DNA of 64,000 nucleotides from Acidobacteriota bacterium (GCA_965209055.1 OZ242374.1:3104001-3168000), one strand, 5' to 3'. Positions 40,906 through 61,445 are shown, numbered from the stretch's first letter. Notes: generated from the sequence alone by a model not told the origin. Numbers and translations: made by a program.

Positions 40906-41213
40906 TTTGACCGCTGAAAAGTGGCTTTCGTGCCAGTCTGGGACTGTGAATGGGACATGCGGGGTGGATTCACGAAAATCGGTCCTGGCGATTCACAAAT
41001 CCGATTGCACCGATCTCTTTGCCTTTCATGCAGTTACGGCCACATTCCCGGCTTCGCCGTGCCCGCACGGGGAAATCGGAGGTGGACGGGAGCGACCCCC
41101 CCTTTTTCCTGCCCGGTGCGGGCGCGGGGGTGTTGCGCCATTCACATTTGCGCAGCACCCCCTGGGGGGGTCGCTCCCGTCTCATTATCCCTAGCGGGAA
41201 GGCCAGAAATGAC
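40906..41213 (+). repeat. Hairpin-repeat family A, copy 1 (stem 41085-41181)
   Basis: GACGGGAGCGACCCCCC...GGGGGGTCGCTCCCGTC with an inner GGGGGTGTTGCGC/GCGCAGCACCCCC stem, followed by TCATTATCCCT. Confidence 0.9.
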
Positions 41214-41569
41214 ATCCGTGGCGTGGCAGAATAGAACCTAATGAGCGCCGGGGGGATCCGGAACCCATTTAACTCGTCCCACTGCGCCGACCGTCTGAGC
41301 GTCGGACAGGCGCCCAAAACAGGAAGAGGACCCGGATGGAATTCGCCGATTCCATCACCTCCATACAGGGAGCCAGAACGCCGGCCACGAGCCTATACCT
41401 ACACCTTCGTGCCGTCATTTCAGACCAACATATACACTCTACGGTGATTTTTTCGCGGATCGGGCCGAAGATCACCGGGAGAGCCCAAGGAAGCTGATTT
41501 CAGCGTAGATCTGGGATCGTCTTGCTACGGGTGGGGGTATCAGCGACAATAGAAGCTAGCAGAGACTCC

Positions 41570-42796
41570 ATGCAAAGAATAGCCGCCGCTCTCGTTGCAG
41601 TCTTGTGGGGCAGCGTCACTGCGGACGGCGCCCAACTTCCGCCGGAAACATCACTTGGCGCCCAGAAGGAGTTAGTGGTTGGGGATGTTGCGCCCGGATT
41701 CGACACTGGAGGAACTCTCCAATTCCTTGAAGGAGAAGACCTGGAATTTTCCTCTCTTCGTGGAAAAACAGTAGTCTTCGAGTTCTGGGCAACATGGTGC
41801 GTTCCATGCATCCAAGCTATTCCTCACTGGAATGACCTGATCAAGGAGCTTTCCGGGAAACCCATTACTTTCATCTCCATTTCAATTGATGAAGACGAAT
41901 CTCGGCTTCGTGACCTCCTAAAGTCAACACCTATCTTGGGCCTATCGGCCTGGGACCCAGATCGAAAATGGTTCAAGGCCTACCAGGGGACATCCGTCCC
42001 CCACACTGTGATCGTGGATTCCGCTGGCAAAATCGCCGGGATCACTTCACTTAAGAAACTGACCGTAGGAATACTTGAGAAGATCACAAACGGTGATCCC
42101 TTTAATCTTCCCCCAAAGCAGGTGTCTTCCGCCAACGCGGATTGGGATCGGAAAGAGATTGGCTGGGACGATGGGATCGAGCCTTTGGCGCAGGTCATCA
42201 TCAAACCTGTGTCTGTAACCGGCTCTGCCTTGAATTATTCTCCCGGAAGCAATCGACTCTCTGGAGATGGTTTGCGTCTTGAGACCTTGGTCCATACGGC
42301 GTATGAAACAAGCCTCCTGTATCTGGATTACCGCTTGCCTCACTCAAGACAAGGGTACCGTGTCTCAGCTTTCGTGCCACAAGGACAAGAGGCTCGACTT
42401 CTGCCTCTCCTACGGGAGACTCTAAAAGCCAGCCTGGGATTGTCCATCCGTTGGGAAACTCAAGAGAAAGAAGTACTCGTTCTGAAGCAGCTGCTGGGCG
42501 AGGAGAGTAGGCTTAGACCTTCACAAGCAGAGCAAAGTGCCCGCGGGTGGAAGCGGGGCACCCTCTATGGAACCAAGCAAACTATGGAGGAACTTTGTGT
42601 CGCTGTCGCTAATCTGATGGAGATTCCGGTCGTTGCTGAGACCGCCCTCAGTGGCCAATACGATTGGGAACTCCCCTTCCAACCGGGCAACCCGGATGTC
42701 TTAATGGCCAGCCTGCGCAAGAGGCTAGGTTTGGTGGCGGAAAGAGCCCGCCGCCAGATTCAGGTTCTCGTCGTCGAAAAGGCCGTGTCTCGATAA
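41570..42796 (+). CDS. TlpA-like thioredoxin fused to TIGR03435/DUF3738-like domain, exported
   Basis: Signal peptide, RGKTVVFEFWATWCVPC, and C-terminal PVVAETALSGQYDWEL...LGL...VLVVEKA. Confidence 0.85.
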   Translation: MQRIAAALVAVLWGSVTADGAQLPPETSLGAQKELVVGDVAPGFDTGGTLQFLEGEDLEFSSLRGKTVVFEFWATWCVPCIQAIPHWNDLIKELSGKPITFISISIDEDESRLRDLLKSTPILGLSAWDPDRKWFKAYQGTSVPHTVIVDSAGKIAGITSLKKLTVGILEKITNGDPFNLPPKQVSSANADWDRKEIGWDDGIEPLAQVIIKPVSVTGSALNYSPGSNRLSGDGLRLETLVHTAYETSLLYLDYRLPHSRQGYRVSAFVPQGQEARLLPLLRETLKASLGLSIRWETQEKEVLVLKQLLGEESRLRPSQAEQSARGWKRGTLYGTKQTMEELCVAVANLMEIPVVAETALSGQYDWELPFQPGNPDVLMASLRKRLGLVAERARRQIQVLVVEKAVSR

Positions 42797-43141
42797 CGTA
42801 CGCTGGCAACCCCTGAAATCGGTCCCTTCAGGACACAGGATCAGGTGGTATCGGTTTTCTCTCGTGGACTCTTTCAGGTGTCGGCATCTCCCCTGGTCCG
42901 CTACCGAGTCTCCCGCGAACTACCCAACAAGTTTTCGCCCGACGCAATCTCGGACGCCTTCCTCGACAATGGGACGACCGCGTGCCATTCATTGCCACGA
43001 TGGCCGCTGGTTAGAGTTCCCCGGCTTTTCCGGGAGCAGGGATCAACTTGTATTCGCCCGGAAACACGGTCCTGGAGAAGCGGATAAGACTCCTCCAATA
43101 GGGGTTAGGGTTCCAAAAGATCAACCTGTTGGACTCTATTC

Positions 43142-43735
43142 CTATCCACCGCAGGCTTCTGCGTTCGCTCGCAAGTACTCACTCAGGAAGCCATCGAGGA
43201 GACTCGTAAGACGATCGACGATGGGTCCAGAATCGTTGCCTCCCACTTCGTCGCTGCCAAACCCTACGCCACGAGACCTCCACGTCGTCGCCGTGTGCTT
43301 CCATCCGCTGACCGGATCGGTCACGATCTTGTTGAATCGCAGAGAGATGACGAACGCCGTTGCCTCCGAGGAGACTCCCATGAAATCGACAGAGACATCC
43401 AGATACGCATGGGCCGCTTCGCTTCTCAAACCTGTGTAGGGACCCAGGTAGATGTGTTTCCCCCGTAAGCTGTTTTCGGCTACGGCTCCGATGCGGTCCC
43501 CAAGGAGTTTGAATTCCATTGGAGTGAGATCGTTTGGACCCTCAGTACCACGCGAATATCCCAACCCAACACCCAGTTCTATGGGACGACAGGCGTTGTA
43601 AAGCCTGAAGTGATCGTAACCCGGGAGAGCCGAGGCGGGTTGCTTCGCAGCGAGTCCGGTTTGAACCACGGCCAGGGCGGCGAAGGAGATGGTCTTTAGT
43701 ATGAGGCCGGAAGGGTGAATGCTTTGGTAGGTCAT
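43142..43735 (-). CDS. Hypothetical exported protein
   Basis: Hydrophobic N-terminus, FRLYNAC, and C-terminal FLSEYLRANAEAC. Confidence 0.65.
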   Translation of the reverse strand: MTYQSIHPSGLILKTISFAALAVVQTGLAAKQPASALPGYDHFRLYNACRPIELGVGLGYSRGTEGPNDLTPMEFKLLGDRIGAVAENSLRGKHIYLGPYTGLRSEAAHAYLDVSVDFMGVSSEATAFVISLRFNKIVTDPVSGWKHTATTWRSRGVGFGSDEVGGNDSGPIVDRLTSLLDGFLSEYLRANAEACGG

Positions 43736-43820
43736 AATTCAAGATTTTACCACGGGCCGACTATTAGAATCTCTTCCTCACCTGATTTGGAACTCCCGCC
43801 GTCGGGGACGACCGAAGTAT

Positions 43821-44243
43821 TTTTTCCACGTCGATCCGGGACACGCGACCGACAAGGACTTGCGCTCCTGAGCAGCCTTGCGCCGGCGTCTCTGGGAGAG
43901 CTTGCACGAGAAGGGCCGCACGATCCAAGGGGTGGCCGTCGCCCGGGAGGACCGGGCGCTGGAACGGGCCGAAACCGTGTTGCGCCACTGGATCCGGGCC
44001 TCCAGCCCCAAGGTTAACTTAGGGGACCCTGCGGCGGCCAGAGAGTACGCCAAGAGCAAACGGACCGTGCTCACGGGAGATTCGACCGTGATCAATCCCT
44101 GTGGCGGCTTGACAGCCGCGTTGAAGCGGGCGATCTGGTGCCAAACGTTGGTAGATACAGCAAACCGCTCCGTCGGCGGGGTCATCAACAGCTATTGCAG
44201 GGGGAGCGCAACTCGTTTGCCGGAGGCTGATTTTGACCGCTGA
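43821..44243 (+). pseudogene. C-terminal remnant of an uncharacterised mobile-element gene (paralogue of 48932..49330)
   Basis: FHVDPGHATDKDLRS*AALRRRLWESL...VAVARE..LERAETVLRHW aligns by eye with the 48932..49330 fragment; TGA replaces the Trp codon. Confidence 0.75.
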
Positions 44244-44530
44244 AAAGTGGAATTTCGTGACGATCAGGGAGCGCACATGGGACAACGGGGGGCATGTGCA
44301 CGAAAGAGGCCTTTCGGTGTGCACGGACACTTTTCTCTAACCGCCTATGCCCGTTCCAGTTACGGCTCGCCTCGCGGCGTGGCGGTGCCGAACGGGGAAT
44401 TCTGAGGTGGACGGGAGCGACCCCCCTGTTTTGCCTCCCGGATCGGCAATGCGGGGCAGGCAAATGTGCACTCTCCGTGCCATCACCTTGGGGGGTCGCT
44501 CCCGTCTCACTATCCCTGGCGGGAAGGCCC
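44232..44530 (+). repeat. Hairpin-repeat family A, copy 2 (stem 44410-44506)
   Basis: TTTGACCGCTGAAAAGTGG start shared with copy 1; same 17-bp arms but different loop sequence. Confidence 0.9.
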
Positions 44531-44579
44531 CTGTGACGACCTCCAGACAACTTCAACCGCTTGTGGCAAGATAGCGACC

Positions 44580-46349
44580 ATGTACCAGACCGGCCTTACC
44601 ATTGAGGAGACCCTCAAACAAATCCAAAAGCGCGACCTCGTACTCCCCGCGATCCAGAGGGAGTTCGTCTGGCGTCCAGAGCAAATTTGCCGACTCTTCG
44701 ACAGCCTGATGCAGGGGTTCCCGTTCGGAACGTTCCTCTATTGGAAGGTGGATCCGGAGAACAGCGACAAGTTCAACTTCTACGGCTTCGTGCTCGACTA
44801 CCACCAGCGTGACAATCGACATTGCTCGCCGCTTCCGTCCATGCCAAACACGCCGCTCACCGCAGTGCTCGATGGACAGCAGCGCTTGACGGCCCTCAAT
44901 GTCGGACTACGAGGGAGCATGACGTGGAAACTGCCGCGTCTGTGGTGGAACAATCCCAAGGCCTTCCCGAAACGACACCTCTATCTGGACCTCCTGTGGA
45001 ACGCTGGCGAGGATGATGAGGAGGGGACCGGGTATCGCTTCAACTTCCGGCGCGAGGCCGAGCCCCGCCAACGCGATGCCACGGCGGGGAATGATGCCGA
45101 ATGCTGGTTCCGCGTGAGCGACGTGTTGTCGATGGACGGTGGTCCGGCGATGGTGCGGTGGCTGAACAGGCGCCTCAAACAGCGGTTTGTGGACCATGCC
45201 TACGAGACTCTCGACCGGCTTCACAGGGTGGTCCGTAAGGACCACGTGGTGGCGTACTACAAGGAGCGGAGACAGACACTGGACGACGTCGTACAGATAT
45301 TCATTCGTATGAATGACGGCGGCACCCCCCTCTCTCACTCCGACCTGCTCCTGTCGATCGCCGTGGCGCAATGGACAACGCACGATGCGCGTGAGGAGAT
45401 TCACGAACTCGTGGACGGGCTCAATCGGATCGGCTTGGGGTTCTCCTTCTCGAAGGACCTGGTTCTCAAGGCCGGACTGATGCTGAGCGACATCGGGAGC
45501 GTGGGATTCAAGGTGGACAACTTCAATCGCGAGAACATGGCCGTTCTCGAGGAACAGTGGACATCCGTCAAATCGGCGCTCACGTTAACGGTCCAGTTGG
45601 TCGCGGGGTTCGGTTTCAGCCGGGCAACGCTAACCGCGCATAATGCCATTCTGCCCATCGCATACTACCTGCACCGGAGCAAGCATGCGGAGTCGTTCCT
45701 CAGCCACAGCGGGCATGAGGACTACCGGGAGAGGATTCGCAGATGGCTGATCCGCAGTCTGCTGAAGAGCGGTGTCTGGGGCAGTGGCCTCGATACGTTG
45801 CTCACAGCGCTGAGGAGGGTGATCCGCGAAGATGCGACCCAGGAATTCCCTGCCGCCCGGCTTGGCGAGGAGATGGCCCGCCGAGGGCGGGAACTCGTGT
45901 TCAATGATGAAGAAGTCGAAGAACTGGCGGACACGGAGTATCGCAGCCCGCGCGTCTTCGCGCTTCTCTCGCTCATCTTCCCCTTCGTGGATCTGGGGAA
46001 GCTGTTTCATGTGGACCACGTCTTCCCGGTCGCGAAGTTCAGCAAGCGCAGGCTGCGCGATGCGGATATCCCCGAGGAGAAAATCGAAGGATTCCGGGAG
46101 CGGGTGAACCGGCTCGGCAACCTCCAACTCCTGCCCGGGCCGGTAAACACGGAGAAGAGTGCGACCATGCCGGTCGAATGGTTGGCTCGGGCGTATCCTG
46201 AAGAAATGCGACGAAGGTCACACGTTCACGATCACATGCTGGGCTCCGTACCTGAAAAAATGACGGGGTTCGTTGATTTTTACAGCGCGAGAAGGACGGG
46301 CCTCGTCAAAAGAATCAAGAGGCTGCTGGGGAACGAGGGTTCCAACTGA
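44580..46349 (+). CDS. GmrSD-family (DUF262 + DUF1524/HNH) modification-dependent restriction endonuclease
   Basis: LPAIQREFVW, LFDSL..GFPFG, LDGQQRLT, IFIRMNDGGTPLS and HVDHVFP...NRLGNLQLL. Confidence 0.88.
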   Translation: MYQTGLTIEETLKQIQKRDLVLPAIQREFVWRPEQICRLFDSLMQGFPFGTFLYWKVDPENSDKFNFYGFVLDYHQRDNRHCSPLPSMPNTPLTAVLDGQQRLTALNVGLRGSMTWKLPRLWWNNPKAFPKRHLYLDLLWNAGEDDEEGTGYRFNFRREAEPRQRDATAGNDAECWFRVSDVLSMDGGPAMVRWLNRRLKQRFVDHAYETLDRLHRVVRKDHVVAYYKERRQTLDDVVQIFIRMNDGGTPLSHSDLLLSIAVAQWTTHDAREEIHELVDGLNRIGLGFSFSKDLVLKAGLMLSDIGSVGFKVDNFNRENMAVLEEQWTSVKSALTLTVQLVAGFGFSRATLTAHNAILPIAYYLHRSKHAESFLSHSGHEDYRERIRRWLIRSLLKSGVWGSGLDTLLTALRRVIREDATQEFPAARLGEEMARRGRELVFNDEEVEELADTEYRSPRVFALLSLIFPFVDLGKLFHVDHVFPVAKFSKRRLRDADIPEEKIEGFRERVNRLGNLQLLPGPVNTEKSATMPVEWLARAYPEEMRRRSHVHDHMLGSVPEKMTGFVDFYSARRTGLVKRIKRLLGNEGSN

Positions 46350-46458
46350 AGGGGATTGGCCGCTAGAGACGGCCTTAGAAGCCCTCGACCCTCACTAGCT
46401 ATGGTTCATTCTTTCGCTTCATGCTCCCGGTCAGTCTGTTGGAAATCCCCCCTGCCAT

Positions 46459-48400
46459 CTAGTCCGAAGTTCCAGCCATAGAGACAAGATAACTCCTTGA
46501 TTTCAAAAGGATAACTCACGAACTCGACTTCGTCTGCACGGGGAACGTCCGAACCAGCTCCAGTGCCCGTCGCTGCAGCGGCGTCGGTTCCGTCACTCGT
46601 TGCGCCCTCGGACCGTCCGGGTCCGAGGCCATTCGGCACTGGTGGCGGGCCCGCGTCCCCAGCTCCGCCATCAGCGTGGCGAAGCTGTGGATCGGCAGCC
46701 CGTCCTCGGTCTGCCGCTTGCTCTTCTTCCGTTTCGCCGACGCCGACGGCTCGGCCCTCAGCACCGGGTCTCGTCGTGCCCGGTGCGCCTCCAGGTCCTC
46801 GTCATCGAACAGCAACGGGGCCAGGGCTCGGCGCAGATGCCACTCGACGTAATACGACAGCAAACACAAGAACAGGTGCGCGCGGACCCGCCTCTCCGCC
46901 CGGTGTCGGATGGGCCGGATCTGCAAGTCCACGGTCTTCAGGCAGCGGAAGGCCCGCTCCACGTTCGTCAGGTTCTTGTAGCTGCGCACCACCTCGGGGG
47001 TCGGCAACCGGTCCTCCGGTTCGCTGGTGCGCAGGATGTAGAAGCCGTCCAGTTGCGCCTCGCGGGCAATGGCCTCACTCCGCCGGGCGTACTCGAAGCG
47101 CCCATCCTCGATCACCAGCTGGAAGTGCTTGGCCATCTTGTGCCGGTTCTTGACCCGACCCACCTTCTCGGCGATCTGGATCGCCAGCAACGGGGTCTTG
47201 GTGCGCCGCGCCACCTCCCGGGCGATCCGGGCCAGCTTCTCTTCCGTGGCCGCCAACAGGTCCTGGCGTTTGCCCCGTCGATACTCGGCCAGCATCGGAT
47301 TGTAACAGACGACGAGCCGTACTCCCGGATAGGACTCGGTCTGGATCTCCGCCAGGTGCTGCTCGTCGAAGAGGGAGCGTTGAACGGCTTTGTTTTCAAC
47401 CAGTTTGCGAATGGCCTCATGGCGCAAGGCCGAGATCCAGCCCAGTCCCGGATGGCGCTTCAGGTGCTTGATCTGGGTCTCGGTCAGCAGACCCCGATCC
47501 CCCACCAGCACCACCCGCTTCAACCCGAAGCGCTGACGCAGCCTCTGCACCTGATCCGGTACCGTCACCGGGTCCCCCGTGTTGCCCGGATAGGCCTGGA
47601 CGGCCACCGGCCGTCCCGCCCGATCCGCCATCACCCCGTAGACCACGATCGGTCGGCCCCGCTTGCCGTCCCGGCTGTGGCCGAACCGCATCAAGGAACA
47701 GGTGTGGCCTTCGTAGAAACTGCTGGAGAGGTCGTAGAGCACGTGATCGCCTTCGGCCAAGTGCCGCCGGGCCAGTTTCTTCTCAATCCTCTCCTGACGT
47801 TGGAGCAACCAGTCCATGACTTGGTACAGGTCGTGCTCGTCGGCGTCCTCCAGGGAGAGCTCGGAGGCCACGGTGGTGGTGTGCCAGAGGCGGGTGGTGG
47901 CCAGCTTGGAGGCGGGATGCAGCAAGCGCTGCATGATCAGGGCCAGCACCAGGTCCCGCTGGCGCGACGGGCGGTAATCGATCAGAGCGGGGAGTCGGAG
48001 GTGGCGGAGGGCCTTGAGGAGGACCTCGACATGACCGTGGGGGAGGGAGCGTTCGATGACGAAGAGTTCGTCGGGGTGAACGAGGGGGACGTTCTTGAGG
48101 ACGAGTCGCATGCGTTGGATCTTGTCCTGTGGCCAACCGGTGAGGTTGGCGATGGTGCGTTTACGGACGCGTTTGCCTTCGCGCCAGCCTTCACGGAGGA
48201 GGACGGCGGGGCGGGAATTTCGGTTGGGGACGATGTCGATGTACATGGCAACCATTATAGTACATAACAATATTATTTTACACTGGATAAGTCTTTTTAA
48301 ACATGGGAACAAATAAGGGCAGACTGGACGCCTCTACCGTAAAGGAATCAACCATTTAGCTCGATTTCAAGGGCGTGAAATGTCTGGAACTTCGGTCTAG
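46459..48400 (-). mobile_element. IS1634-family insertion sequence
   Basis: Terminal inverted repeats CTAGTCCGAAGTTCCAG and CTGGAACTTCGGTCTAG (16/17 match) flank the transposase. Confidence 0.88.
46516..48246 (-). CDS. IS1634-family DDE transposase
   Basis: MYIDIVPNRNSRPAVLLRE, LYDLSSSFYEG, FGHSRDGK, VGDRG, VERAFRCLK and RVRAHLFLC. Confidence 0.93.
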   Translation of the reverse strand: MYIDIVPNRNSRPAVLLREGWREGKRVRKRTIANLTGWPQDKIQRMRLVLKNVPLVHPDELFVIERSLPHGHVEVLLKALRHLRLPALIDYRPSRQRDLVLALIMQRLLHPASKLATTRLWHTTTVASELSLEDADEHDLYQVMDWLLQRQERIEKKLARRHLAEGDHVLYDLSSSFYEGHTCSLMRFGHSRDGKRGRPIVVYGVMADRAGRPVAVQAYPGNTGDPVTVPDQVQRLRQRFGLKRVVLVGDRGLLTETQIKHLKRHPGLGWISALRHEAIRKLVENKAVQRSLFDEQHLAEIQTESYPGVRLVVCYNPMLAEYRRGKRQDLLAATEEKLARIAREVARRTKTPLLAIQIAEKVGRVKNRHKMAKHFQLVIEDGRFEYARRSEAIAREAQLDGFYILRTSEPEDRLPTPEVVRSYKNLTNVERAFRCLKTVDLQIRPIRHRAERRVRAHLFLCLLSYYVEWHLRRALAPLLFDDEDLEAHRARRDPVLRAEPSASAKRKKSKRQTEDGLPIHSFATLMAELGTRARHQCRMASDPDGPRAQRVTEPTPLQRRALELVRTFPVQTKSSS

Positions 48401-48519
48401 TTCACTACCCCTGACTGCTATGCTGCTCTTCGGGTCCGGATTCCCTCTCCACGGCCCAATTCCCGGCCCGCGCAAGCTCTTCAAACTTGGAGTTGAGGCT
48501 CGAAACTCGCCCATGAAGT

Positions 48520-48672
48520 CCACGGCTTGACCGAACGGTTACGTCCGTTCACGGCCACGAAGGGCCAAAGACATCCGTTTCATCCCGGTGGAAAGAATGG
48601 TGGAGAAAGCGGTGTCGATAAATTCGTAACTCTTTTATAGTGAATGGGGTACGGAAGTTATAGAAACAGTCC
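48520..48672 (+). repeat. Orphan right end of an IS66-like element plus repeat family C
   Basis: CCACGGCTTGACCGAACGGTTAC followed by GTCCGTTC and ~120 bp homologous to 61017-61146. Confidence 0.75.
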
Positions 48673-48674
48673 GC

Positions 48675-49330: not shown

Positions 49331-49399
49331 GCGAAAGGGCTTCCCAATGTCGATCGGGAGGTGTAAGGGAGACAAAGGACGCGAGTTACATCCCGGAAG

Positions 49400-49630: not shown

Positions 49631-49719
49631 AGCGTGAGATCGCCCTCGACATTTGCAAATGGCCATTGACAGTTGACACTGGATATGACCGTCTCCTCCC
49701 GCATCTCCTGATATTTTCC

Positions 49720-51788: not shown

Positions 51789-51793
51789 ACTAA

Positions 51794-53591: not shown

Positions 53592-53936
53592 TCATGCCCT
53601 GCCGCTCACGCAAACTTTGCTGACCATCGAGAGCAGGCCTTCGGCTGCATTTAGAACTTGAGTGACCTGTTGAAGCTTTGCCAGGGCGGTTTTCAGACCT
53701 TCGATGCTCGTGAGAATACCCTCTTCGTTTTCTTTCAAGCTATCACGAATGTCTGCCAGGGCCGCGTTCCCGATACGCAGCCTCGCCGCTTGGGTCTCCA
53801 AGAGAACTCTCCCGGCTCGATCAATCTCCTCCTTGGTCCTCTCCCGCAGGGCCAGCTGCCATTCGGGAGACATCATTTGCACTACCGTATTCCGGAGTTG
53901 CCGAACTGTTTCGATTCGAATCTTGAACGGCGCCAT
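53592..53936 (-). CDS. Hypothetical coiled-coil protein
   Basis: GGAGG RBS inside the upstream gene end; 114 aa, amphipathic helical. Confidence 0.65.
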   Translation of the reverse strand: MAPFKIRIETVRQLRNTVVQMMSPEWQLALRERTKEEIDRAGRVLLETQAARLRIGNAALADIRDSLKENEEGILTSIEGLKTALAKLQQVTQVLNAAEGLLSMVSKVCVSGRA

Positions 53937-53941
53937 GGGAC

Positions 53942-54931: not shown

Positions 54932-55012
54932 TAACTTTTTCCTTCCGCCATCAACGCAGACATTGGCAACGCCTAAACGTAGCCTTCTCTTGGATCAGCC
55001 CGACTAACGCGG

Positions 55013-55855
55013 TTACCTTCCCTTGGCCCGGTTCGCCTCATTGGTACCTGTCGCACGCAGGTGTGAGATTCTGCTCAGCAGATCGAACCAGAATGGTGCA
55101 CCGAGACTGATCGCCATGATGGTCATGATCCACCCAACGATCATTCGAAAAGTGATTTTCGGGAAACCTCCCGGATAGCCGATCGGAAACGTCTCGATCT
55201 GCTTTTCCGCGTTGATCTCAATAGTGTCTTCGTTGCTGCCCGCTTTGCCGGCCTCGGCCGCAATCACCGTGCGTAACGCATCGTTTATCCACAACTGCTC
55301 GGCGATATGGATCGAATCGGCGTTGAAAGCAACCGTAACGACCATGGCGATCGCCAGCAGGAAATACTTGACTTGGCGCTTATACCAGCCGGAGACTCGG
55401 TCCATGCCATCGTCGAACCACGCGGACAGTCGCTGGCTGATTCCATCCACTGTGTTCTCGTCCTTTTTCGCCAGGCTGAGCAGAAGATCTCGCGCGGGAT
55501 TGGCACTCTCAATTTTTTTGATGGTGTCGCGAAGTTGGCAGGCGGTCAGCTCGCTTACGCTTTTGCCGGCCTTATCCTTGGCAACTACTTCGAGAAGCGC
55601 AACGGTGAAAATCTCAGGCTGGATATACGAGGGCAACTTGCCCGGCTTGCGTAGGCCCTTGATCAGCGGATGTTTGTAGACTGACCGTGCGTACTCGCTG
55701 CCGACGAGGTTCTTGATGCCTTTCTCAAGATTCTTGGAGCGAAGACCGAAAATACTGGCGATGATCTCCTGTATCGAGCTGCAAACCAGACTCAGCAGCA
55801 CGTAGAAAAAGATCAGTCCGATGGCGACGTCCATAATCGGAGTGTCCAGCAACAA
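55013..55855 (-). CDS. Uncharacterised integral membrane protein
   Basis: GAGGAG RBS; TM segments DVAIGLIFFYVLLSLVCS, WFDDGMDRVSGWYKR and GWIMTIMAISLGAPFWFDLL. Confidence 0.8.
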   Translation of the reverse strand: MLLDTPIMDVAIGLIFFYVLLSLVCSSIQEIIASIFGLRSKNLEKGIKNLVGSEYARSVYKHPLIKGLRKPGKLPSYIQPEIFTVALLEVVAKDKAGKSVSELTACQLRDTIKKIESANPARDLLLSLAKKDENTVDGISQRLSAWFDDGMDRVSGWYKRQVKYFLLAIAMVVTVAFNADSIHIAEQLWINDALRTVIAAEAGKAGSNEDTIEINAEKQIETFPIGYPGGFPKITFRMIVGWIMTIMAISLGAPFWFDLLSRISHLRATGTNEANRAKGR

Positions 55856-56073
55856 TCTCTCCTCTCTTCGGGTTGTTCGCTACCCTGCATTTCTCATCAC
55901 ATGGAACAACGAACGGAAAATGAGCCGCTGTGTGGGCGATTCTTCATCCACATGACCTTCCCGCTGGCCCATTGCAACTGCCGGACAAATTCCATCTCCG
56001 TCGCGATCCTCCGTTTCAACCAGTCCCCCTCGGATACGCCTGTCACCGAGCCGGGACTGAGGCTTCGCCATGT

Positions 56074-56445
56074 TTATTTCTCCATGATGAGACGGATCAG
56101 AAAGCTCACCAACCCACCCACGGCGGCTCCCAAGGTCAGCATCAGGCCGACCACCTTCCACATGGTTTCAACGCCCATCTTGTCGGATAGCCCGGTCTCG
56201 ACGGTCTTGATGTCCTCCGCGTGCCGATGCAGATCCTCTTGGACGTTGTGCATGAGGAGGTCTATCGTTTCCTTGTCTGATTTTTTTTCGATCTCGCGCT
56301 CAATCTTTTCGAGGCGCGCTTGAATCTCACGACGATGATCGTCGAGGATGCTGCGGAACTCGTTTCGCCAAGACTCGAATGTTTGTATGAGTAAGCGCTC
56401 GCTCTCCTTCCAGTCAAAGTGCTGGCCCGGATGTGACTCATCCAT
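56074..56445 (-). CDS. Coiled-coil protein with C-terminal TM anchor
   Basis: AAGGAGG RBS before MDESH; coiled-coil then WKVVGLMLTLGAAVGGLVSFLI. Confidence 0.7.
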   Translation of the reverse strand: MDESHPGQHFDWKESERLLIQTFESWRNEFRSILDDHRREIQARLEKIEREIEKKSDKETIDLLMHNVQEDLHRHAEDIKTVETGLSDKMGVETMWKVVGLMLTLGAAVGGLVSFLIRLIMEK

Positions 56446-57341
56446 GGGGTCCTCCTTGTCGCCACCAAGCGTCGGAAGTCTTGTGGATCGTTTCTCCACA
56501 AATGATTTGGGGCATGGTGTCGGGTTGTGGTTTTGGCCTAATGGTCACCCATTCTTCAGCGCCAACATTGACGGTGTCCCCGGTGTCTGTATCGAGCAAG
56601 ACCGAGTGCTGCAGTCAATCATAGGGCGAGTGGCCGTAGGTACTTCCTGTATTCCGGCGTTTTGATTCGTCACGGTGCTGGCTCGGAGCGGATGCCGCAC
56701 CTGCTTTCCTCTGGATTCCGACAAACCTGGGATCCGCTCGTCCAAAACCAGAAACATTCCGGTGTCGTGATTGTCGCCATAACGCAAGCAGCGGGAGCTC
56801 AGCCAGACTAGGTTTCTGTACCGCAACGGAAAAACACCAGAATCACCCTCCGGTATCGGCCCCAGTGGCCCGAATCGTTGGCTTCGCTCTCACAAGATCA
56901 CCATTCGCCCTTCCAACGGTGCATGTCGATCGCTTCATGCTGGTATTGGCTTTCATATCCGGTTGCGGCTGATTTGGCCTGGCTCAGGGCAGCCAGTCTT
57001 CTGATCGTGACCAGCGTGACGGACAGGGTCGGAAGGAGTTCCTCGTATTCAACAACGAATGTGAAGATTTACCCAAACCGTTGCGTGTTTCACTTCTGGG
57101 AATAAATGCCAATCCCGCCGCGTCAGAAAGTCGCCAACTCGTTTTCCAGACGGGATACCTCGATGGATCTGTGTCTTCCGATTACTTCTTACTGTCTTGA
57201 AAGACGAACCGGTTGCTCTCGCGGACGATATGGGTCATCAGCACCTGTCCCTCAATCTAGATTCGGAACATCGACCGGATCACGCTGAACTCGCTACGTC
57301 GGTCTCCGTCCGCACTACGATCATCTGTAGGCTCCAGCGAA

Positions 57342-57371
57342 TACCTACCGTCGCGTCGGCAAAAGTGTCGG
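57342..57371 (-). promoter_or_regulatory. Candidate alternative-sigma promoter motif, minus-strand copy
   Basis: Reverse complement reads CCGACACTTT-TGCCGACGCGA-CGGTAGGTA (same 11-nt spacer length); points toward the 56445-53592 genes. Confidence 0.55.
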
Positions 57372-57609
57372 CCAGACCTCCGGTGCGGACAGGGATCGGT
57401 CAATCTGCCTAATCTCAGCCCGTTGAATGTGCGGAATCCGGTTTCGCCTGGTTTATTCGGTGCGCCGTGGAAAGGCGCTTTCTCATAGGGGGTGCGAAAC
57501 CCGCACGACGACTCTCGCTTCATCCGGCAGCAGTCGGAGGGGACCGCAGGCCGGGGGCACGGTCGTCAGGACAAACTCTCTCCCGACATGGGCGATTCGG
57601 CGTCCGTCT

Positions 57610-57855
57610 TCACCAGAGTCTGATTTGGCCGATCCTTTTCTCGGCCCGTTCCCGATAGCGCGCCGCCCGCAGGGCGCGCTGGCAACGCTCACACAGGGGG
57701 GCCACGATCAGGGTGTCCCGTCCGCAGCGGGCGCAGGGCCGGGATTCCATCCACTGCCAGAGGGTCTCGGTGAGATCCCCGCAACGTTCGCAATGCTGCT
57801 CACCTGGACCGACGCGAAGGACTCGGCATCCGGCGCAGGTTCGCTCAAAGCTCAT
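57610..57855 (-). CDS. Small Cys-rich protein (four CxxC)
   Basis: CAGC, CERC, CARC and CERC; ATG overlaps the stop of the upstream ORF. Confidence 0.5.
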   Translation of the reverse strand: MSFERTCAGCRVLRVGPGEQHCERCGDLTETLWQWMESRPCARCGRDTLIVAPLCERCQRALRAARYRERAEKRIGQIRLW

Positions 57856-58043
57856 CGACGTATAGACCGGCGCCCGTGTCCCGACTCGCAGAATTCCCCG
57901 CAACGAGGACAGTTCGGACAGACGCCTCGATAGCTACAGTGCGGGCAGCGATAGGAGTGTCGTCTGCGGAGCCGGTCCACCGCCCGCTTCCTGAGCGTCT
58001 CCAGCCGTTCCTCGTGGATGTCAGGGACGCTCATGCGTCCCAT
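57852..58043 (-). CDS. Small Cys-rich Zn-ribbon-like protein
   Basis: YRCPHC...CPNCPRCGEFC; ATGA coupling to the next ORF. Confidence 0.45.
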   Translation of the reverse strand: MGRMSVPDIHEERLETLRKRAVDRLRRRHSYRCPHCSYRGVCPNCPRCGEFCESGHGRRSIRR

Positions 58044-58274
58044 CTTGCCCGTTCCGGGTGTCACATTGTGGGCTTCCCGCAGGATCAGTGAATCGTCGGG
58101 ACCGCTTTTTGCGAATCCACCCGGCGTGTCCCATTCACACTCCCGGACCGGCACGTGACCCCCTTTACGCAATGTCGAAACGAGCCACACAAGCCTTATC
58201 AGCCGGGAGTGCCCCAGCACGACGATCAGAGCGTGGCCCTGGCCCCACGGTACCCGGAACTGGGCGATGTCCAA

Positions 58275-58492
58275 ACTGGATATGGCCGGCTCCCGCCGCA
58301 TCGACTGATTTTTCCTCCGACACTTTCGATCAATCTCCGGTATGTATCCCAATGATCGGGCCTTCGGTCTGGCTCACCGAAACAATCCGTCGGCCGGACA
58401 CGAGTCCGTAACAGCATCCGCGAATCTTTGCGGTGGAGCCTGGGTTCCCATGGGCTCCACCGCGTAACGCTAACGTTCTACAACGAAAGGAG
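58275..58492 (+). promoter_or_regulatory. Duplicated 218-bp promoter/leader cassette, copy b (motif 58317-58346)
   Basis: Motif, then GCGGTGGAGCC/GGCTCCACCGC hairpin (58430-58463) and AAAGGAG 6 nt before ATG 58499. Confidence 0.75.
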
Positions 58493-58498
58493 TCCGAC

Positions 58499-59296
58499 AT
58501 GGGATGGAACAGTCAAGAGCATTGGAAAGAGAATTTCGAGCGCGACACGAACAATCTCACAAGCTATGACGATTGGGATGTATGGAACTCGGATTTTCTG
58601 TACTATCCAGCCATAGTCCGCAACGACAGGTGCAGACTCGCCTTGGGATCGGCGTCGTCGCCCGAAGGGTTCACCGGCGCGGTCACTGCCGACCCACACA
58701 CCCCCCGATCACATTTCAACGAAGGAACAAACCGCCGGAACAAGTGGAGGGCCACGATGGACTTCGATCCGAAGCTCCGTTACGACCCTATTTACGGTCA
58801 TGCCGCAGTCTTCCTGCGAGTCCACAACAACCGGAGATACCGGAACCCGGACACGGGCAAGTCGTCCAACGACACCACTCGCTTCGGGTGCTTCATCCGG
58901 GGGGAGGCGACCGGGAGCACTCCGCAAGGCGCTCTCCAATTGGACGGAGACAAGCGAAACACCAACCCGCTGGAGAAGTGCCGCGTGATAGAACGATTCT
59001 CCCTCGACGAGGACCCGTTCGACAACACGACGGGCGCCATCTACCGGGTGGAGATCATTGAGGAGGAACTGTACTTGCCTCCGCTACAGCAATGGATCGC
59101 GCAATGGCAGGCCAAGGTCTACAACGGGTCCGGTCAGAAGATCGGCGAGAGTACGACCCGGACGGCCCGGTATCTGGAACAGCAAGGCATGGTCATCCCG
59201 TCACTCGACCATTCCAGGATCGCAATCGGTTCTGGCCCCGCACGCCAAGGCCGGGTTGATGCAACCGAGGTAGCAACGAATTACTGGATTTACTAG
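58499..59296 (+). CDS. Hypothetical protein (Trp/aromatic-rich, probably beta-rich)
   Basis: Strong RBS, 265-aa open frame, no recognisable motif. Confidence 0.7.
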   Translation: MGWNSQEHWKENFERDTNNLTSYDDWDVWNSDFLYYPAIVRNDRCRLALGSASSPEGFTGAVTADPHTPRSHFNEGTNRRNKWRATMDFDPKLRYDPIYGHAAVFLRVHNNRRYRNPDTGKSSNDTTRFGCFIRGEATGSTPQGALQLDGDKRNTNPLEKCRVIERFSLDEDPFDNTTGAIYRVEIIEEELYLPPLQQWIAQWQAKVYNGSGQKIGESTTRTARYLEQQGMVIPSLDHSRIAIGSGPARQGRVDATEVATNYWIY

Positions 59297-60102
59297 AGAG
59301 TAGACTCAGCAATGCCTTGGGGTTCCGCAACGACAGGGACGTGCCGGATGTTTCCCGTCTCGTGTGAGAACCCCAAGGCACCCACCGCAATCCGAGTCTC
59401 CCCGACGATGCGCACGATCCCACCGAAATGATGCGGGTTTCCCACCGACTCCTCTAACGGGATCAATTCTGAAAGAAACTTACTCAGCCGACTCATTGGA
59501 GCAATCGTCCACCTTGCCTCGACCGGCCTCCGCAAAGGCTTCCCGTACATAACGTACATCTGAACTCTCACTCTCTGTTCCTCGTGAGTTGGATTGACAA
59601 TCGAGATCGCTGTCTCCTGATCGTCCTTGTCCCACCGAAACCCGAAGAGTCGGAATGCGGGCGCAGGTTCCACCGCTGCGGAGGAAGCAGCGGAGGACAA
59701 GGTCGACGTCGGATCATCCCCGTACTTAAGCACTGTGCTGACTGCAAGGAGCTTGCGATTCTCCGGGTACACGATCCAGGCCCATCCGTTATGAATCGTC
59801 TCGCTCAAGTAAAGAGGATGGAAAACCACCGTCTCCGTGGCATTATCGGCGAGTGTGCGGTCTTCTCCCTCCCCGTGGACGAATTGGCCGTCCTCAGTAA
59901 ACTCACGCACCTTGAAGGTCGTAGGAAGACCGGACGCCTCCATTACTGAAATCTCCGTGGTGTAAGAGAGTTGAGCGTAGATGGGGACGACGAGCATCTT
60001 GAGCAGGACGTCCGTAGTGACGAATGGCGCTTGCGAATGCCCGGCCAGAAGCAACAGGGGCAGGTGCGGCAAGGCGACTAGCAATGATTTGGTCTTACTC
60101 AT
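59293..60102 (-). CDS. Hypothetical exported protein
   Basis: Signal peptide MSKTKSLLVALPHLPLLLLAGHSQA; two similar beta-rich halves (YTTEISV, QETAISIVNP). Confidence 0.7.
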   Translation of the reverse strand: MSKTKSLLVALPHLPLLLLAGHSQAPFVTTDVLLKMLVVPIYAQLSYTTEISVMEASGLPTTFKVREFTEDGQFVHGEGEDRTLADNATETVVFHPLYLSETIHNGWAWIVYPENRKLLAVSTVLKYGDDPTSTLSSAASSAAVEPAPAFRLFGFRWDKDDQETAISIVNPTHEEQRVRVQMYVMYGKPLRRPVEARWTIAPMSRLSKFLSELIPLEESVGNPHHFGGIVRIVGETRIAVGALGFSHETGNIRHVPVVAEPQGIAESTL

Positions 60103-60684
60103 GGTCTGGCCAAGAGTATCATCAATCGAGAGGGGTCGGAGCTGGTCGGTTTCGAACCGACGTTTCCTGAGCCTCAGTCAGGTGTGTTGGCCAAGATAAA
60201 CAGTCTCCAAGTTCGAACGGTATCCCAACGTGGAAAATCAGAGATTTCCCACCGGGTGAGCCCTCTTGCTGGCCTGACAATCTGCGCGCCCCACGGACGA
60301 AAAACCGCTTTCGTCCGGAGGGTCACTCAGGTTTCCCTGACTGGCGGACCAAGAGGCACTCTTTCTCCCAGCGGATCACCTCCAAGACGGTGGCCGTTCA
60401 AGAGTCCCCTCCTTTGGTAGTGATCTTGATGACCCGCCCCACCAGGTTCTTGGAGAGCTTGCCGGTGATGTCCAGTTAGGACGACGCCCAGGAGCAGTCT
60501 TCGAGCTTGCAGGGGTGCCCTGAGATTTCGCAGGTGTTTTGCCATCGACACCGTATAGGTTGGACAGGCGCCGGGCTGGGGGCTATTGACTGGCAGCACA
60601 GATCAGAGCATCACCGAGCCACGCTGAGCGGTTCGGCCTCGGGGGTGTCGCCACGCGGGGATCCGGGGCTGCTAACGTCCGTTC

Positions 60685-61016
60685 GTAACCGTTCGGTCAG
60701 GCCGTGGAAGATCGGTCGATCGGCATCCTCGCCGCAGTGATCAATTCCATTTGGGTTGCTGTCGGGCTTGAACCACTCTTGGCGGCGGCAAGACCTCCCG
60801 GGGAAAGGATAACGGCAGGTGATCATCGGCCGAAAAATTCTTGCACGGCACGCGATCCGACTGCATCGTTCCGACACCATGGGTCAAATTACCGCTCTGG
60901 GCCTCCATCCCGTGGGAGGTGGAAGAGTGGCGCTTCGTCAGGTGCTCACCCCCATTGAGCGTGGGACCGCAGGCCCGGCTCAGGAAGTCGATCCCCACGG
61001 CTTGACCGAACGGTTA
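60685..61016. mobile_element. IS66-like MITE or internally deleted element (~332 bp)
   Basis: TIRs GTAACCGTTCGGTCAGGCCGTGG and CCACGGCTTGACCGAACGGTTA; 8-bp direct repeat GTCCGTTC at 60677-60684 and 61017-61024. Confidence 0.8.
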
Positions 61017-61149
61017 GTCCGTTCTCGGCCACGAAAGGCCAAAGACATCCGATTCATCCCGGTGGAGAGAATGCGGGGAAGAGCGGTGGTGGAAATTCTA
61101 TAAATCTTTTATTTTAAATGGTTTAAAGACTTTATAGAAACAGTCCTCC

Positions 61150-61445
61150 AGGGATAATTGAAACGGGAGCGACCCCCCCAGGGGGTGTTGCGCAAATGTG
61201 AATGCGCAACACCCCCACGCCCGCACCGGGCAGCAAAAAGGGGGGGGCGCTCCCGTCCACCTCCATTTTCCCCGTGCGGCCACCCGGTGGCCGGAAATGG
61301 GGCCGTAACTGACTGAAAGGAAAAAAGATCGGGGAGAGTGCATTTGTGCGTCACCGGGACCGCTTTTTGTGAATCCACCCCCTTTGTCCCATTCACATCC
61401 CGGATCGGGCGCGAGACCCCCTTTACGCACTGCCGAAACGAACCA
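61150..61445 (-). repeat. Hairpin-repeat family A, copy 5 (stem 61163-61256)
   Basis: Reverse-complement match to copies 1 and 4, with a perfect 14-bp inner stem GGGGGTGTTGCGCA/TGCGCAACACCCCC. Its upstream part recurs alone at ~58098-58188. Confidence 0.9.

Follow-up and report, generated by a model that had tools for sequence, protein, structure and literature searches.

The locus and its features

The window is a 64,000-nt stretch of an Acidobacteriota genome (OZ242374.1:3104001-3168000, assembly GCA_965209055.1). The whole "island" in it is one int2-type integrative element of 25 kb that contains nested insertions, IS copies and cargo (Table 1). Its flanks are the halves of a palindrome, GGAGTGGGGG-TTTTCCAA at 62109-62126 and ATTTCCAA-CCCCCACTCC at 37033-37050. 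The earlier note had described five nested hairpins of ~100 nt in this island. All five are present, at the stem positions and on the strands listed in Table 1, but each is the 3' half of a larger module and the repeat unit is ~289 nt rather than ~100 nt. The module opens with hairpin P1 on its 5' side, has a three-way junction and a long-range pairing, and closes with the conserved tail ATCCCTGCGGGAAGGCC.

The copies differ in sequence and surroundings. Copy 2 is a TGCACAT/ATGTGCA variant, in P1 and in the inner-hairpin loop, with GmrSD cargo downstream, and copy 4 is a TGTAAGG/ACTTAC variant with a sigma-factor block downstream. The tail of copy 3 is interrupted directly after the octamer CCCTGCGG by a sequence that we call class F (ACTGTTTCTATAA), which also directly follows the tail of copy 5. 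In the sixth, partial copy, the 5' part is fused directly to the tail-like GATCCTGCGGGAAGCCC, after which a zinc-ribbon-type ORF follows. The inverted tail at the left end of the int1 unit is seen as a weak model match at 39461-39509 on the minus strand.

Table 1. Module copies and associated features in the window.
Feature	Position	Strand	Remarks
int2-type integrative element (whole "island")	37043..62108	-	
int2, Xer-like tyrosine recombinase of the carrying 25-kb element	37094..38245	-	
Inverted tail copy	39461..39476	-	GGCCTTCCCGACAGG on + strand; left end of int1 unit
int1, P4-like tyrosine integrase	39462..40837	+	frameshifted here; directly upstream of copy 1
Module copy 1	40916..41204	+	R1 161 bits; P1 40916-~41001; junction outer stem 41085-41181; tail 41182-41204 (TCATTATCCCTAGCGGGAAGGCC)
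Module copy 2	44241..44529	+	R1 118 bits; stem 44410-44506
Module copy 3, diverged	48664..48968	-	R1 35 bits; stem 48688-48795
Module copy 4	49332..49620	+	R1 142 bits; stem 49501-49596
Sixth, partial copy	58060..58166	-	5' part and tail, without hairpin
Module copy 5	61139..61438	-	R1 142 bits; stem 61163-61256
Left arm of int2-type carrier element	61439..62108	-	orfX remnant directly upstream of copy 5

Structure and covariation

We built a covariance model, R1, from 53 module copies. A search of the window with R1 returned exactly five matches, which are the five reported hairpins on the same strands, with E-values from 1e-37 to 3e-7. Scored on the opposite strand, copies 1 to 5 reach 29, 32, 13, 22 and 23 bits (forward scores in Table 1).

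Both compensatory changes that the note had read from the outer arms are confirmed, from AGCGA/TCGCT to AGCGC/GCGCT in copy 4 and from GACGGGAG/CTCCCGTC to GAAGTGAG/CTCACTTC in copy 3. The outer stem is 17-18 bp long, encloses ~60 nt of further hairpins and has the base sequence CCGCACGGGG ... ATCCCTGCGG, and the distal stem covaries (GGACGGG/CCCGTCC, GACGAT/ATCGTC, GGCTGGG/CCCAGCC). The long-range pairing joins 7 bp of the 5' segment with a hairpin loop ~170 nt away and is retained across six sequence variants. Across 55 copies, both-sided changes occur in 25 of the 51 pairs; shuffles gave 12.8 +/- 1.9 and none of 500 reached 25, while slid controls had 11-14 pairs with double changes. The covariation extends over six helices and the pseudoknot-like long-range pairing. 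With covariation above the controls and both helices and pairing kept, the data support the note's proposal of an element selected for its structure and acting in single-stranded form. Counts of G-T versus A-C mismatches (outer stem 26 v 22, P1 5 v 6, inner hairpin 36 v 19) do not pick out the sense strand.

The tail forms a mini-hairpin of its own. Its innermost pair is CG in 23 cases, UA in 8 and GC in 2, and its loop is free in length and sequence (TGC, TTGC, GTGC, TCC, TAC, TGGC). At 13 metagenomic loci the GGAAGG of the tail is invariant, half of it buried in this covarying mini-hairpin. The module also contains repeated 7-mers ~100-170 nt upstream of the tail.

The note had not recognised the hairpin as a described family, and Rfam has no match to the module either. 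At gathering thresholds Rfam gave 0 matches in the whole window, and its best matches by E-value over 40700-41400 reached at most 22 bits against cut-offs of 32-85, all of them to unrelated families. We set aside an intrinsic terminator or REP element, as we found no terminator-like site at 40700-41400 and the unit is 289 nt with several helices. A REP/RAYT link was also rejected; the window's Y1-type ORF adjoins no module copy.

The home locus in a conjugative element

The 6.08-Mb genome has 68 BLAST matches to the module, of which 63 bear the tail. The copies with this 3' end are spread across the genome, so the hairpin is not a mark of the window's island. One of the 63 lies in an integrative conjugative element (ICE), at C1:1832114-1832252 (-), between an unnamed gene that we call orfX and the coupling-protein gene, within a VirB2/B4/B9/B10/B6/B8 ... 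VirB11 cluster. The order orfX, module, coupling-protein gene recurs at all seven VirB4 loci examined (G000, G003, G010 twice, G012, G020 and G021), with the module on the same strand as VirB4 and 5.8-6.0 kb downstream of it. We considered metagenomic orfX loci whose match was full-length and which continued for 350 nt or more past the gene; of these 41, 34 show a same-strand model match 159-194 nt after orfX. Of 21 downstream ORFs tested, 13 are coupling proteins. The module normally belongs before the coupling-protein gene of a conjugative element.

At 13 of the metagenomic loci the coupling-protein ATG lies exactly 10 nt past the model match, behind a spacer of variable sequence and fixed length. 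In the genome's own ICE and in G020 the coupling protein starts 48-54 nt past the tail and has a separate GGAG in front of it. The module always points the same way as the genes on either side of it, whether beside int1, an orfX remnant, orfX and the coupling protein, or at the G082 locus.

All eight of eight congeners have the module. The genome has a single ICE of this kind and most congeners have none; seven congeners hold 4-25 module matches without the VirB4 of this ICE.

Islands that carry the module

All 36 of 36 full-length copies lie behind int1 (7) or behind the orfX remnant of int2 elements (29). The two island families, with the P4-like integrase int1 (~16 copies) and the Xer-like integrase int2 (~27 copies), together account for about 43 integrase copies in one genome. 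Both have att-like ends, and the smallest islands are ~2.7-3.4 kb. Int1 has the Pfam domains Arm-DNA-bind_3, Phage_int_M and Phage_integrase. The "X" of int2 elements is orfX minus residues ~187-255, so that the int2 elements share this remnant, as well as the module, with the ICE; int1 islands share only the module. Eight elements, seven of int2 type and one of int1 type, were searched with Pfam: they have integrases with defence or other cargo, and no match to MPF, T4SS or relaxase families. Many of the small integrase islands bear defence cargo. The module is internal to two integrase-based element families and to a conjugative element, and does not by itself define the new mobile element that had been suggested.

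Homology between copies does stop shortly after the hairpin, as the note had it: it ends ~23 nt past the stem, after TCAnTnATCCCTGCGGGAAGGCC, and at least nine classes of sequence follow. These differences may come from island recombination at the shared module, or from other elements inserting at the tail octamer. A role of the module in cargo exchange is possible, given that the cargo sequence switches there.

Alternative readings

The main alternative, which we regard as possible but less likely than not, is that the module acts in mRNA as a structured leader; lying between the cistrons of orfX and the coupling protein, it would be a riboregulator that sets downstream translation. The GGAAGG of the tail may be a ribosome-binding site, half sequestered in a UCCN-loop-N'GGA mini-hairpin, and the 5' segment may pair either locally in P1 or with the inner-hairpin loop, as a switch that ribosomes might drive when they terminate on orfX, immediately upstream. 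The module would then be the islands' ready-made expression and regulation cassette for cargo and integrase, perhaps tied to ICE activity. The strand shared with both neighbours in all four contexts agrees with this, as do the covarying helices and pseudoknot-like pairing, the mini-hairpin with its covarying innermost pair and free loop, and the fixed distance to the coupling-protein ATG. In many copies an island ORF begins 6-27 nt past the tail (for example the zinc-ribbon ORF in GGAAGGCCACAAATG), and in orfX-remnant copies the stop codon of the upstream ORF lies within the 5' pairing segment. A comparable arrangement is found in repY/repZ of IncI/IncB plasmid replication, where a hairpin loop pairs with a distant segment close to a ribosome-binding site and the translation of an ORF further upstream plays a part, although the system, the genes and the sequence are all different. 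However, the module has no Rfam family and no sigma-70 promoter or terminator was predicted for it, the mismatch counts do not single out the sense strand, and several of the "ORFs" straight after the tail look non-coding (proline- and arginine-rich, no family). In the own ICE and G020 the tail is not the ribosome-binding site, because the coupling-protein start has its own GGAG. Nor does a leader easily account for ~60 copies that, on unrelated islands, have retained the complete fold together with an orfX fragment in decay. It can coexist with an origin of transfer in the same DNA.

The note had also offered a cassette recombination site and an element terminus. We judge improbable an attC-like site at which the tyrosine recombinases nearby would cross over within the tail octamer, capturing and shuffling cargo as cassettes. 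The likeness to integron attC sites is that of imperfect ~100-nt palindromes between cargo genes, near tyrosine recombinases, which keep structure more than loop sequence and putatively function in a folded single strand; here, cargo blocks are separated by copies of either orientation that have integrases nearby. A 4,038-bp int1 element is flanked, by comparison with an empty paralogous site, by a duplication of the octamer, and its insertion site resembles the tail (ATTCCCTGCGGGA). Class F sequence starts directly after the octamer in five copies, an inverted tail stands at the left end of 5 of the 10 int1 units of the window's subfamily, and the partial copy has the look of a deletion between similar motifs that removed the hairpin part. 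Yet the module's ancestral and conserved place is within a T4SS cluster and adjoins no integrase, ~190 nt of conserved structure lie upstream, and integrases of two unrelated families go with one and the same module. Against the integron-integrase model TIGR02249 (cut-off 265) int2 reaches 61.3 bits, and int1, with its arm-binding domain, is P4-like. The central "overlap" is constant in neither length nor sequence (TGC, TGGC, TAGC, TCC ...), which fits a hairpin loop and not a shared crossover region, and most copies have an uninterrupted tail that runs on beyond the octamer (GAAGGCC). With no IntI, no R/L boxes, no RYYYAAC or GTTRRRY core sites at the stem base and copies on both strands, an integron-type site does not fit. 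The ends of both element families are other sequences, which counts against such a site too, and the module is not an element terminus. Similarly improbable in our view is another single-strand DNA function of an excised or transferred circle, such as a single-strand origin, a site that primes synthesis of the complementary strand or an Frpo-type promoter. The strong, strand-biased model scores, the elaborate, orientation-dependent fold of ~290 nt, the position at the head of cargo and a primase-helicase-like gene in the ICE (CHC2 zinc finger and AAA_25) are consistent with it, but nothing links the module to the primase gene and no -35/-10 pair was found in the module region. Of an Frpo-type promoter one would expect the folded strand to serve as template for the downstream genes, whereas here the better-scoring strand is the sense strand.

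The module as a proposed origin of transfer

Among the options raised in the note, a transfer origin is now the best supported, since the module is a constant component of a gene cluster for type IV secretion (conjugation). We put the chance that it is the oriT region of the ICE, carried by hitch-hiking islands, at about even. Like oriTs in general it is a non-coding, inverted-repeat region beside DNA-transfer genes (at 7/7 VirB4 loci and 34/41 orfX loci). The stretch with the highest primary-sequence conservation is preceded on its 5' side by a long inverted repeat, an arrangement typical of an oriT. The rearrangements at the tail, with class F sequence directly after the octamer in five copies and the octamer duplicated around the 4,038-bp int1 element, count for this reading too.

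MOBP-type oriTs (RP4, Ti border, H. pylori tfs4) have a nick consensus of (C/T)ATCCTG(C/T) just 3' of an inverted repeat (PMC3772185), and the module likewise has its inverted repeat immediately 5' of a conserved short sequence. The tail in this genus, TATCCCTGC, is one base longer than that motif, with one extra C, and one copy (C1:1583532) reads GATCCTGCGG at the same place. In metagenomic relatives the motif is not kept: the place is taken by ATCCCTCCGGG, ATCCTTCCAGG and GTCCGTCCCGG (variants listed against the motif as TCCCTCCGGG, TCCTTCCAGG and TCCGTCCCGG). The module differs further in its stem of 17-18 bp enclosing hairpins, and no MOBP relaxase was found with PF03432 in G000, G001, G004, G020 and G023.

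The search for a relaxase was wider than this. PF08751 had no match in the own genome, the HxD..HxH motif is absent from ICE ORFs of at least 150 aa, and neither Pfam nor NCBIfam assigns a family to the unknown ICE ORFs. The oriT of plasmid pAD1 also has a large inverted repeat. The MOBC relaxase of this plasmid, TraX, carries a winged helix at its N terminus and binds short repeats situated 70-120 bp from nic (PMC12857230). OrfX, which adjoins the module, has the N-terminal winged helix-turn-helix expected of MOBC, and the repeated 7-mers of the module lie ~100-170 nt from the tail. However, orfX has no match to PF13814 up to E 10, and its C-terminal domain has no significant structural match: searched as part of a larger fold (best E 3e-3), it gave weak Foldseek matches only, of PD-(D/E)xK type (VC1899 at E 3.3e-3, a Cas4-family protein and R.BspD6I). 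An orfX profile found nothing among PDB sequences. An ESM Atlas match at rank 18 (score 0.84), with PF13814 in 41% of its members, is a lead only.

Several observations count against an oriT: the nick-motif likeness absent from metagenomic relatives, the lack of a relaxase among the searched genomes and ICE ORFs, and the scarcity of the ICE itself. The fold, with its three-way junction and 7-bp long-range pairing, is more elaborate than those of known oriTs, and the constant co-orientation and fixed ATG spacing point to translation. Should the transferred strand have the inverted repeat on the 5' side of nic, the genes downstream would be sense on that strand; by the plasmid leading-region rule the opposite gene polarity would be expected.

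The islands resemble a pattern called the "iOriT hitcher", which a preprint by Ares-Arroyo et al. (bioRxiv 10.64898/2026.01.13.699239) describes for genomic islands in proteobacterial pathogens. Those islands have only the oriT in common with their helper, are more numerous than it is, and carry defence genes close to the oriT. Here too a non-coding region beside the DNA-transfer genes of an ICE recurs on integrase islands that lack relaxase and mating-pore genes, outnumber the helper and have defence genes beside the module; the int1 and int2 elements have the integrase and the shared module of a hitcher, with the identity of the module as oriT as the premise. The differences are that the preprint looks for a region next to a relaxase, and no relaxase was found for this ICE, and that its integrative elements are always >4 kb, with one 2-kb exception, while the smallest islands here fall below that size. 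The number of integrase copies in one genome, the uncultured Acidobacteriota host lineage and the junction and long-range pairing of the module also set our case apart.

The module has a covarying structure, a syntenic place in the ICE and copies on islands lacking transfer genes. What we infer is nicking, transfer and the identity of the relaxase. In an origin of transfer, the 17-18-bp inverted repeat and inner hairpins would fold in the displaced single strand, a relaxosome protein, for which the orfX product is the candidate, would recognise the invariant stem core AGCGACCCC/GGGGTCGCT and the conserved tail, and the strand would be cut in the tail or adjacent to it. Carrying the module would let islands be mobilised by the ICE machinery, and most likely the islands carry it so as to be transferred with the conjugative element.

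Extent and distribution of the module

Five hairpin stems, picked out in the earlier note, can be read directly in the sequence at the positions and on the strands listed in the table. A search of the 64-kb window with our covariance model, R1, returned exactly these five copies, at 161, 118, 35, 142 and 142 bits, and on the opposite strand the same copies scored 13–32 bits. By repeat finding and alignment, homology among the copies begins about 170 nt 5' of the stem, and the whole unit, which we call the module, is about 289 nt long. The note had also reported that homology stops shortly 3' of the hairpin, and this is the case: sequence is common to all copies up to TCAnTnATCCCTGCGGGAAGGCC, with at least nine downstream classes beyond it.

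The finding holds up and goes beyond five copies in one island: the module recurs in the own genome and in other genomes and has a home in a conjugative element. In the own genome (6.08 Mb, a single contig), BLAST with copy 1 gave 68 matches, 63 of which have the 3' end. All eight other species of the genus have the module, as do 4 of 32 further genomes of the order, and a covariance-model search across the phylum found it in 7 of 151 sampled genomes, including its own. A search of PLSDB plasmids with module DNA gave no match. The note recognised no described family, and indeed no Rfam family matches the module. Regular-expression searches for orphan tails returned about 1,000 matches with a loose pattern and 19 with a strict one; we used neither.

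Positions of the module copies and associated features (window coordinates unless a contig or locus is named)
Feature	Position	Strand	Remarks
Module copy 1	40916-41204 (stem 41085-41181)	+	
Module copy 2, stem	44410-44506	+	
Module copy 3, stem	48688-48795	-	
Module copy 4, stem	49501-49596	+	
Module copy 5, stem	61163-61256	-	the int2 element's own copy
Sixth copy, partial	58060-58166	-	5' part and tail; hairpin part absent
int2 element	37043-62108	-	two junctions are matching palindrome halves
Target palindromes, with int2 and the tRNA-like segment	37033-38262, 62109-62126		
DDE transposase gene	46516-48312	-	interrupts island; truncates gene 3' of copy 3
DDE transposase gene	51957-52913	-	interrupts island; IS with ~23 genomic copies
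Zinc-ribbon ORF	57600-58060	-	
Zinc-ribbon ORF	L036:6321-6533	-	
Zinc-ribbon ORF	L019:1811-1996	+	
Direct repeats	49671-49775, 51564-51668, 58268-58372		78-81% identical; bracket sigma-factor block
Segment skipped in public runs	49700-51601		
328-aa ORF	35432-36731 (with the repeats)		~5 genomic copies
Three 41-nt direct repeats	35432-35555		5' of the 328-aa ORF
orfX	L136:399-1328	-	310-aa ORF in the own genome
Diverged module, own genome	C1:1832114-1832252		between orfX and coupling-protein gene
Two modules, G020	G020:C1:2736490-2758300 (L128, L129)		19.5 kb apart
int1 element	C1:2675592-2679629		4,038 bp

Fold and covariation

We drew the structure by hand on an alignment of 55 copies (A2). 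It has a 5' hairpin, P1 (TGTGAAT ... ATTCACA), a small variable hairpin, an outer stem of 17–18 bp enclosing two inner hairpins, and a short stem extension in which an upstream GGGG pairs with CCCT of the tail. On this structure 90.3% of cells are paired, and 25 of 51 pairs have double-sided changes, compared with 12.8 +/- 1.9 in shuffled alignments and 11–14 in slid controls. None of 500 shuffles reached that count, which bears out the covariation that the note had claimed from compensatory changes in single copies; these changes are AGCGC/GCGCT in copy 4, replacing AGCGA/TCGCT, and GAAGTGAG/CTCACTTC in copy 3, replacing GACGGGAG/CTCCCGTC.

The P1 7-mer is variable, being TGTGAAT, TGTAAGT or TGCACAT on islands and TGCCGCA, TGCCCCA/G, TGCCACA or TGTTACA in conjugative-element copies. 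Its variation is tracked both by its local partner and, about 170 nt further downstream, by the second inner hairpin's loop. This long-range pairing has 91.9% of cells paired, versus 19–48% in slid controls, and double changes in 27 cells, versus 8.3 +/- 2.4 shuffled (0 of 500). Among 39 distinct metagenomic copies, 18 of 29 pairs were double-changed, against 12.1 +/- 1.4, in an alignment that favours the structure because it was fitted to the model. The tail also holds a mini-hairpin, TCCN-loop-N'GGA, with an innermost pair that is CG in 23 sequences, UA in 8 and GC in 2, and a loop that varies in both length and sequence. From these paired changes we conclude that the module works as a single strand, RNA or DNA. 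Counts of G-T versus A-C mismatches do not tell which strand (outer stem 26 and 22, P1 5 and 6, inner hairpin 36 and 19), and the marked surplus at one pair in the stem extension comes from a single conserved G-T.

The home locus in a conjugative element

It was the diverged copies that revealed the home of the module. In G020, a genome from another family of the order, both module matches lie directly 5' of a type IV coupling-protein gene, and one of them is inside a VirB3/B4/B9/B10/B6/B8 ... VirB11 cluster. The first of these coupling-protein genes is split and adjoins the VirB cluster; the second is intact, and its module lies behind an Eco57I-like gene. Between the two modules are IS copies and a Thoeris ThsB-like gene.

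The own genome has a diverged module between orfX, a gene for a winged-helix protein, and a coupling-protein gene, within a VirB2/B4/B9/B10/B6/B8 cluster. Of 41 related genomes, six, including the own, have the VirB4 of this cluster, and at all seven VirB4 loci the covariance model places a module 5.8–6.0 kb downstream on the same strand. We then counted those of 62 metagenomic orfX loci in which the match was full-length and was followed by 350 nt or more of sequence. A same-strand module starts 159–194 nt (median 170.5) 3' of orfX in 34 of these 41, and the seven loci with no module match include the most distant orfX (35–49% identity). Coupling proteins made up 13 of the 21 downstream ORFs tested at the metagenomic loci. 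The module is the intergenic unit between orfX and the coupling-protein gene of a conjugative-element family, acquired by two families of miniature integrative islands.

Islands carrying the module

All 36 full-length copies in the own genome sit 3' of either int1 (7) or a short ORF, X (29). int1, a tyrosine integrase of the P4-like type, has the domains Arm-DNA-bind_3, Phage_int_M and Phage_integrase; the genome holds about 16 copies, of which the one in the window is frameshifted. X lies in the left arm of elements whose last gene is int2, an Xer-like recombinase with about 27 genomic copies. These elements run left end, X, module, cargo, int2, tRNA-5'-half-like segment, right end, with half of a GC-rich palindrome on each side. 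Since X is orfX minus its middle (residues 127–186 and 256–307 are kept), the int2 elements contain a piece of the conjugative element, namely the orfX remnant and the module. Their target palindromes are GGAGGGGGGACT-GTT-AGTCCCCCCTCC and variants (e.g. L031, L034-L038, L040 and the window). The tRNA-like segment, GTAGCTCAGTTGGACAGAGC ..., lies between the int2 stop and the right end and terminates at an anticodon-stem-like palindrome.

Most of the cargo in the seven int2 elements examined serves defence. It includes a type ISP restriction enzyme, an Eco57I-like enzyme, a type I R-M system accompanied by an IrrE-like peptidase, a fusion of a methylase to Mrr, GmrSD-Schlafen, AbiTii and Abi-alpha; an LRR protein is present as well. 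The island of the window is itself one int2 element, with junctions that are the halves of GGAGTGGGGG-(T/A)TTTCCAA-CCCCCACTCC. Its other module copies arrived with units nested in it, which comprise an int1 unit, TlpA-DUF3738, GmrSD and sigma-factor blocks, and two IS copies.

In the contigs of each of the four public runs there is a form that skips 49700-51601 in the repeat-bracketed sigma-factor region, with 5 other letters at the joint and sides of only 30 nt, which suggests that the sampled population holds a variant lacking the sigma-factor block. A zinc-ribbon ORF of 60–71 aa (CxxC...CxxC) is a frequent 3' neighbour of island modules; many copies are frameshifted, and no family scored above threshold for it. 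The 328-aa ORF has a weak match to IS200-like Y1 transposases (PF01797, 28 bits), and the 4-kb int1 element of the table sits at the 3' end of one of its paralogues.

Recombination at the tail

Three observations at the tail octamer support the note's impression that cargo switches at a fixed place. The int1 element listed in the table is flanked by duplicated CCCTGCGG, and the empty paralogous site reads ATTCCCTGCGGGA; one class of downstream sequence, class F, starts directly after CCCTGCGG in five copies; and an inverted tail is found at the left end of 5 of the 10 int1 units of the window's subfamily. These events fit either an integrase crossover in tail-like sequence or relaxase-type strand joining at a nick. 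They give no ground for calling the hairpin attC-like, since an integrase is absent from the conserved home locus and copies differ in the length of the "overlap". Contigs of the four public runs (one sample) were broken inside repeats over 37000–56900, and the joints listed there had sides of just 20–30 nt or were located at other repeats.

orfX and the search for a relaxase

The orfX family is widespread and tied to type IV secretion clusters. The G000 (own) and G020 proteins are 43% identical, and 3,534 homologues were found at E <= 1e-3, none with an informative name or Pfam domain save one VirB8 fusion. The protein has a winged helix and an unassigned alpha/beta domain, and E124, E126 and K127 are invariant. 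For the C-terminal alpha/beta domain Foldseek gave only weak rows (VC1899, a Cas4-family protein and R.BspD6I; best E 3.3e-3), and VIA-align rows covered the winged helix alone. orfX did not match PF13814, its profile found nothing below E 0.19 among PDB sequences, and tblastn against PLSDB plasmids gave no match. According to a review (PMC12857230), MOBC relaxases are PD-(D/E)xK enzymes, and the pAD1 protein TraX, which has a winged helix at its N terminus, binds repeats 70–120 bp from nic. These fold features and likenesses make orfX a candidate relaxase or oriT-binding protein, no more.

We found no canonical relaxase in the own genome or in the conjugative-element loci. None was named by PF03432, PF08751 and PF03135 in the own genome, by a scan of the element's ORFs for a three-histidine motif, or by Pfam and NCBIfam on its ORFs of unassigned function. 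In five further genomes the sole PF03432 match was in G082, at a locus far from its module.

What the module may be

Our best estimate, which we hold at about an even chance, is that the module is the oriT region of the conjugative element. An oriT is obligatory for every conjugative element. The module is a conserved non-coding region with an inverted repeat adjoining the coupling-protein gene, and dozens of integrase islands free of transfer genes share with the conjugative element only the module and the orfX remnant. A similar pattern, with islands that lack transfer genes and have an oriT-type region in common with a helper, is outlined for "iOriT" islands, which place defence genes beside an oriT and in which hitchers outnumber helpers (bioRxiv 10.64898/2026.01.13.699239). 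The tail in the genus is also one base off the MOBP nick consensus, beside an inverted repeat (PMC3772185). Against an oriT we count that this nick-motif likeness is gone in metagenomic relatives, that no relaxase was identified in the own genome or the element's loci, that the fold is richer than in known oriTs, and that there are several translation-like features.

Those features point to a structured RNA leader of the coupling-protein gene, a reading we find possible but less likely than an oriT. In 13 loci the ATG is exactly 10 nt past the model match, with a spacer fixed in length and free in sequence; an invariant GGAAGG precedes it, half paired in the covarying mini-hairpin, and the module and its neighbouring genes always have the same orientation. 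However, the start codon in G000 and G020 is 48–54 nt off, behind another GGAG, and a pure leader poorly explains the island copies. Promoters and oriTs overlap in well-studied plasmids, and here too a single region could serve both functions. A fuller version, which we judge unlikely, would combine the oriT of an undescribed system with a new non-HUH relaxase family (orfX, with a winged helix and more than 3,500 unnamed homologues), a pseudoknot-gated leader of the coupling-protein gene, and relaxase-mediated strand exchange at the tail that swaps the defence cargo of dozens of miniature integrase islands as cassettes. A tyrosine-recombinase site is very improbable, and some other single-strand DNA function has if anything a slimmer chance; a small remainder is assigned to no reading.

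Of the options that the note had offered, a transfer origin stands as our best estimate; another of them, an element terminus, was rejected, as were an integron site and a described RNA family. We also rejected an omega RNA or IS200/IS605 end (TnpB/TnpA adjoins no copy), an IS110 bridge RNA (no recombinase of that kind is present), integration into a tRNA or tmRNA gene (ARAGORN predicted neither in the window), and a terminator (the scan gave nothing above shuffled expectation). A group II intron and a retron were considered and dropped. The promoter scan of the module region likewise gave nothing above shuffled expectation.

Significance

An oriT with hitcher islands is a known phenomenon; the alternative would be a large structured RNA leader. 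Under either reading, the covariance model is a practical metagenome marker for these elements. Current models recognise no relaxase in them, and the module, if an oriT, points to orfX as a candidate. If the module is an RNA leader, it would be a new structured RNA of large size that controls a conjugation gene, and its pseudoknot-type interaction is well supported. If the dual-use reading is true, the whole would amount to an integron analogue linked to conjugation.

Should the module be an oriT, it would extend the "integrase plus oriT" hitcher idea, established in six nosocomial proteobacterial species (bioRxiv 10.64898/2026.01.13.699239). Compared with the hitchers described there, the islands here are far smaller, starting at about 2.7 kb, and there are far more of them, with about 43 integrase copies in a single genome; they are loaded with restriction, abortive-infection and other defence genes. 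The module would then offer a way to study conjugation in uncultured Acidobacteriota and in neighbours that share their habitats.
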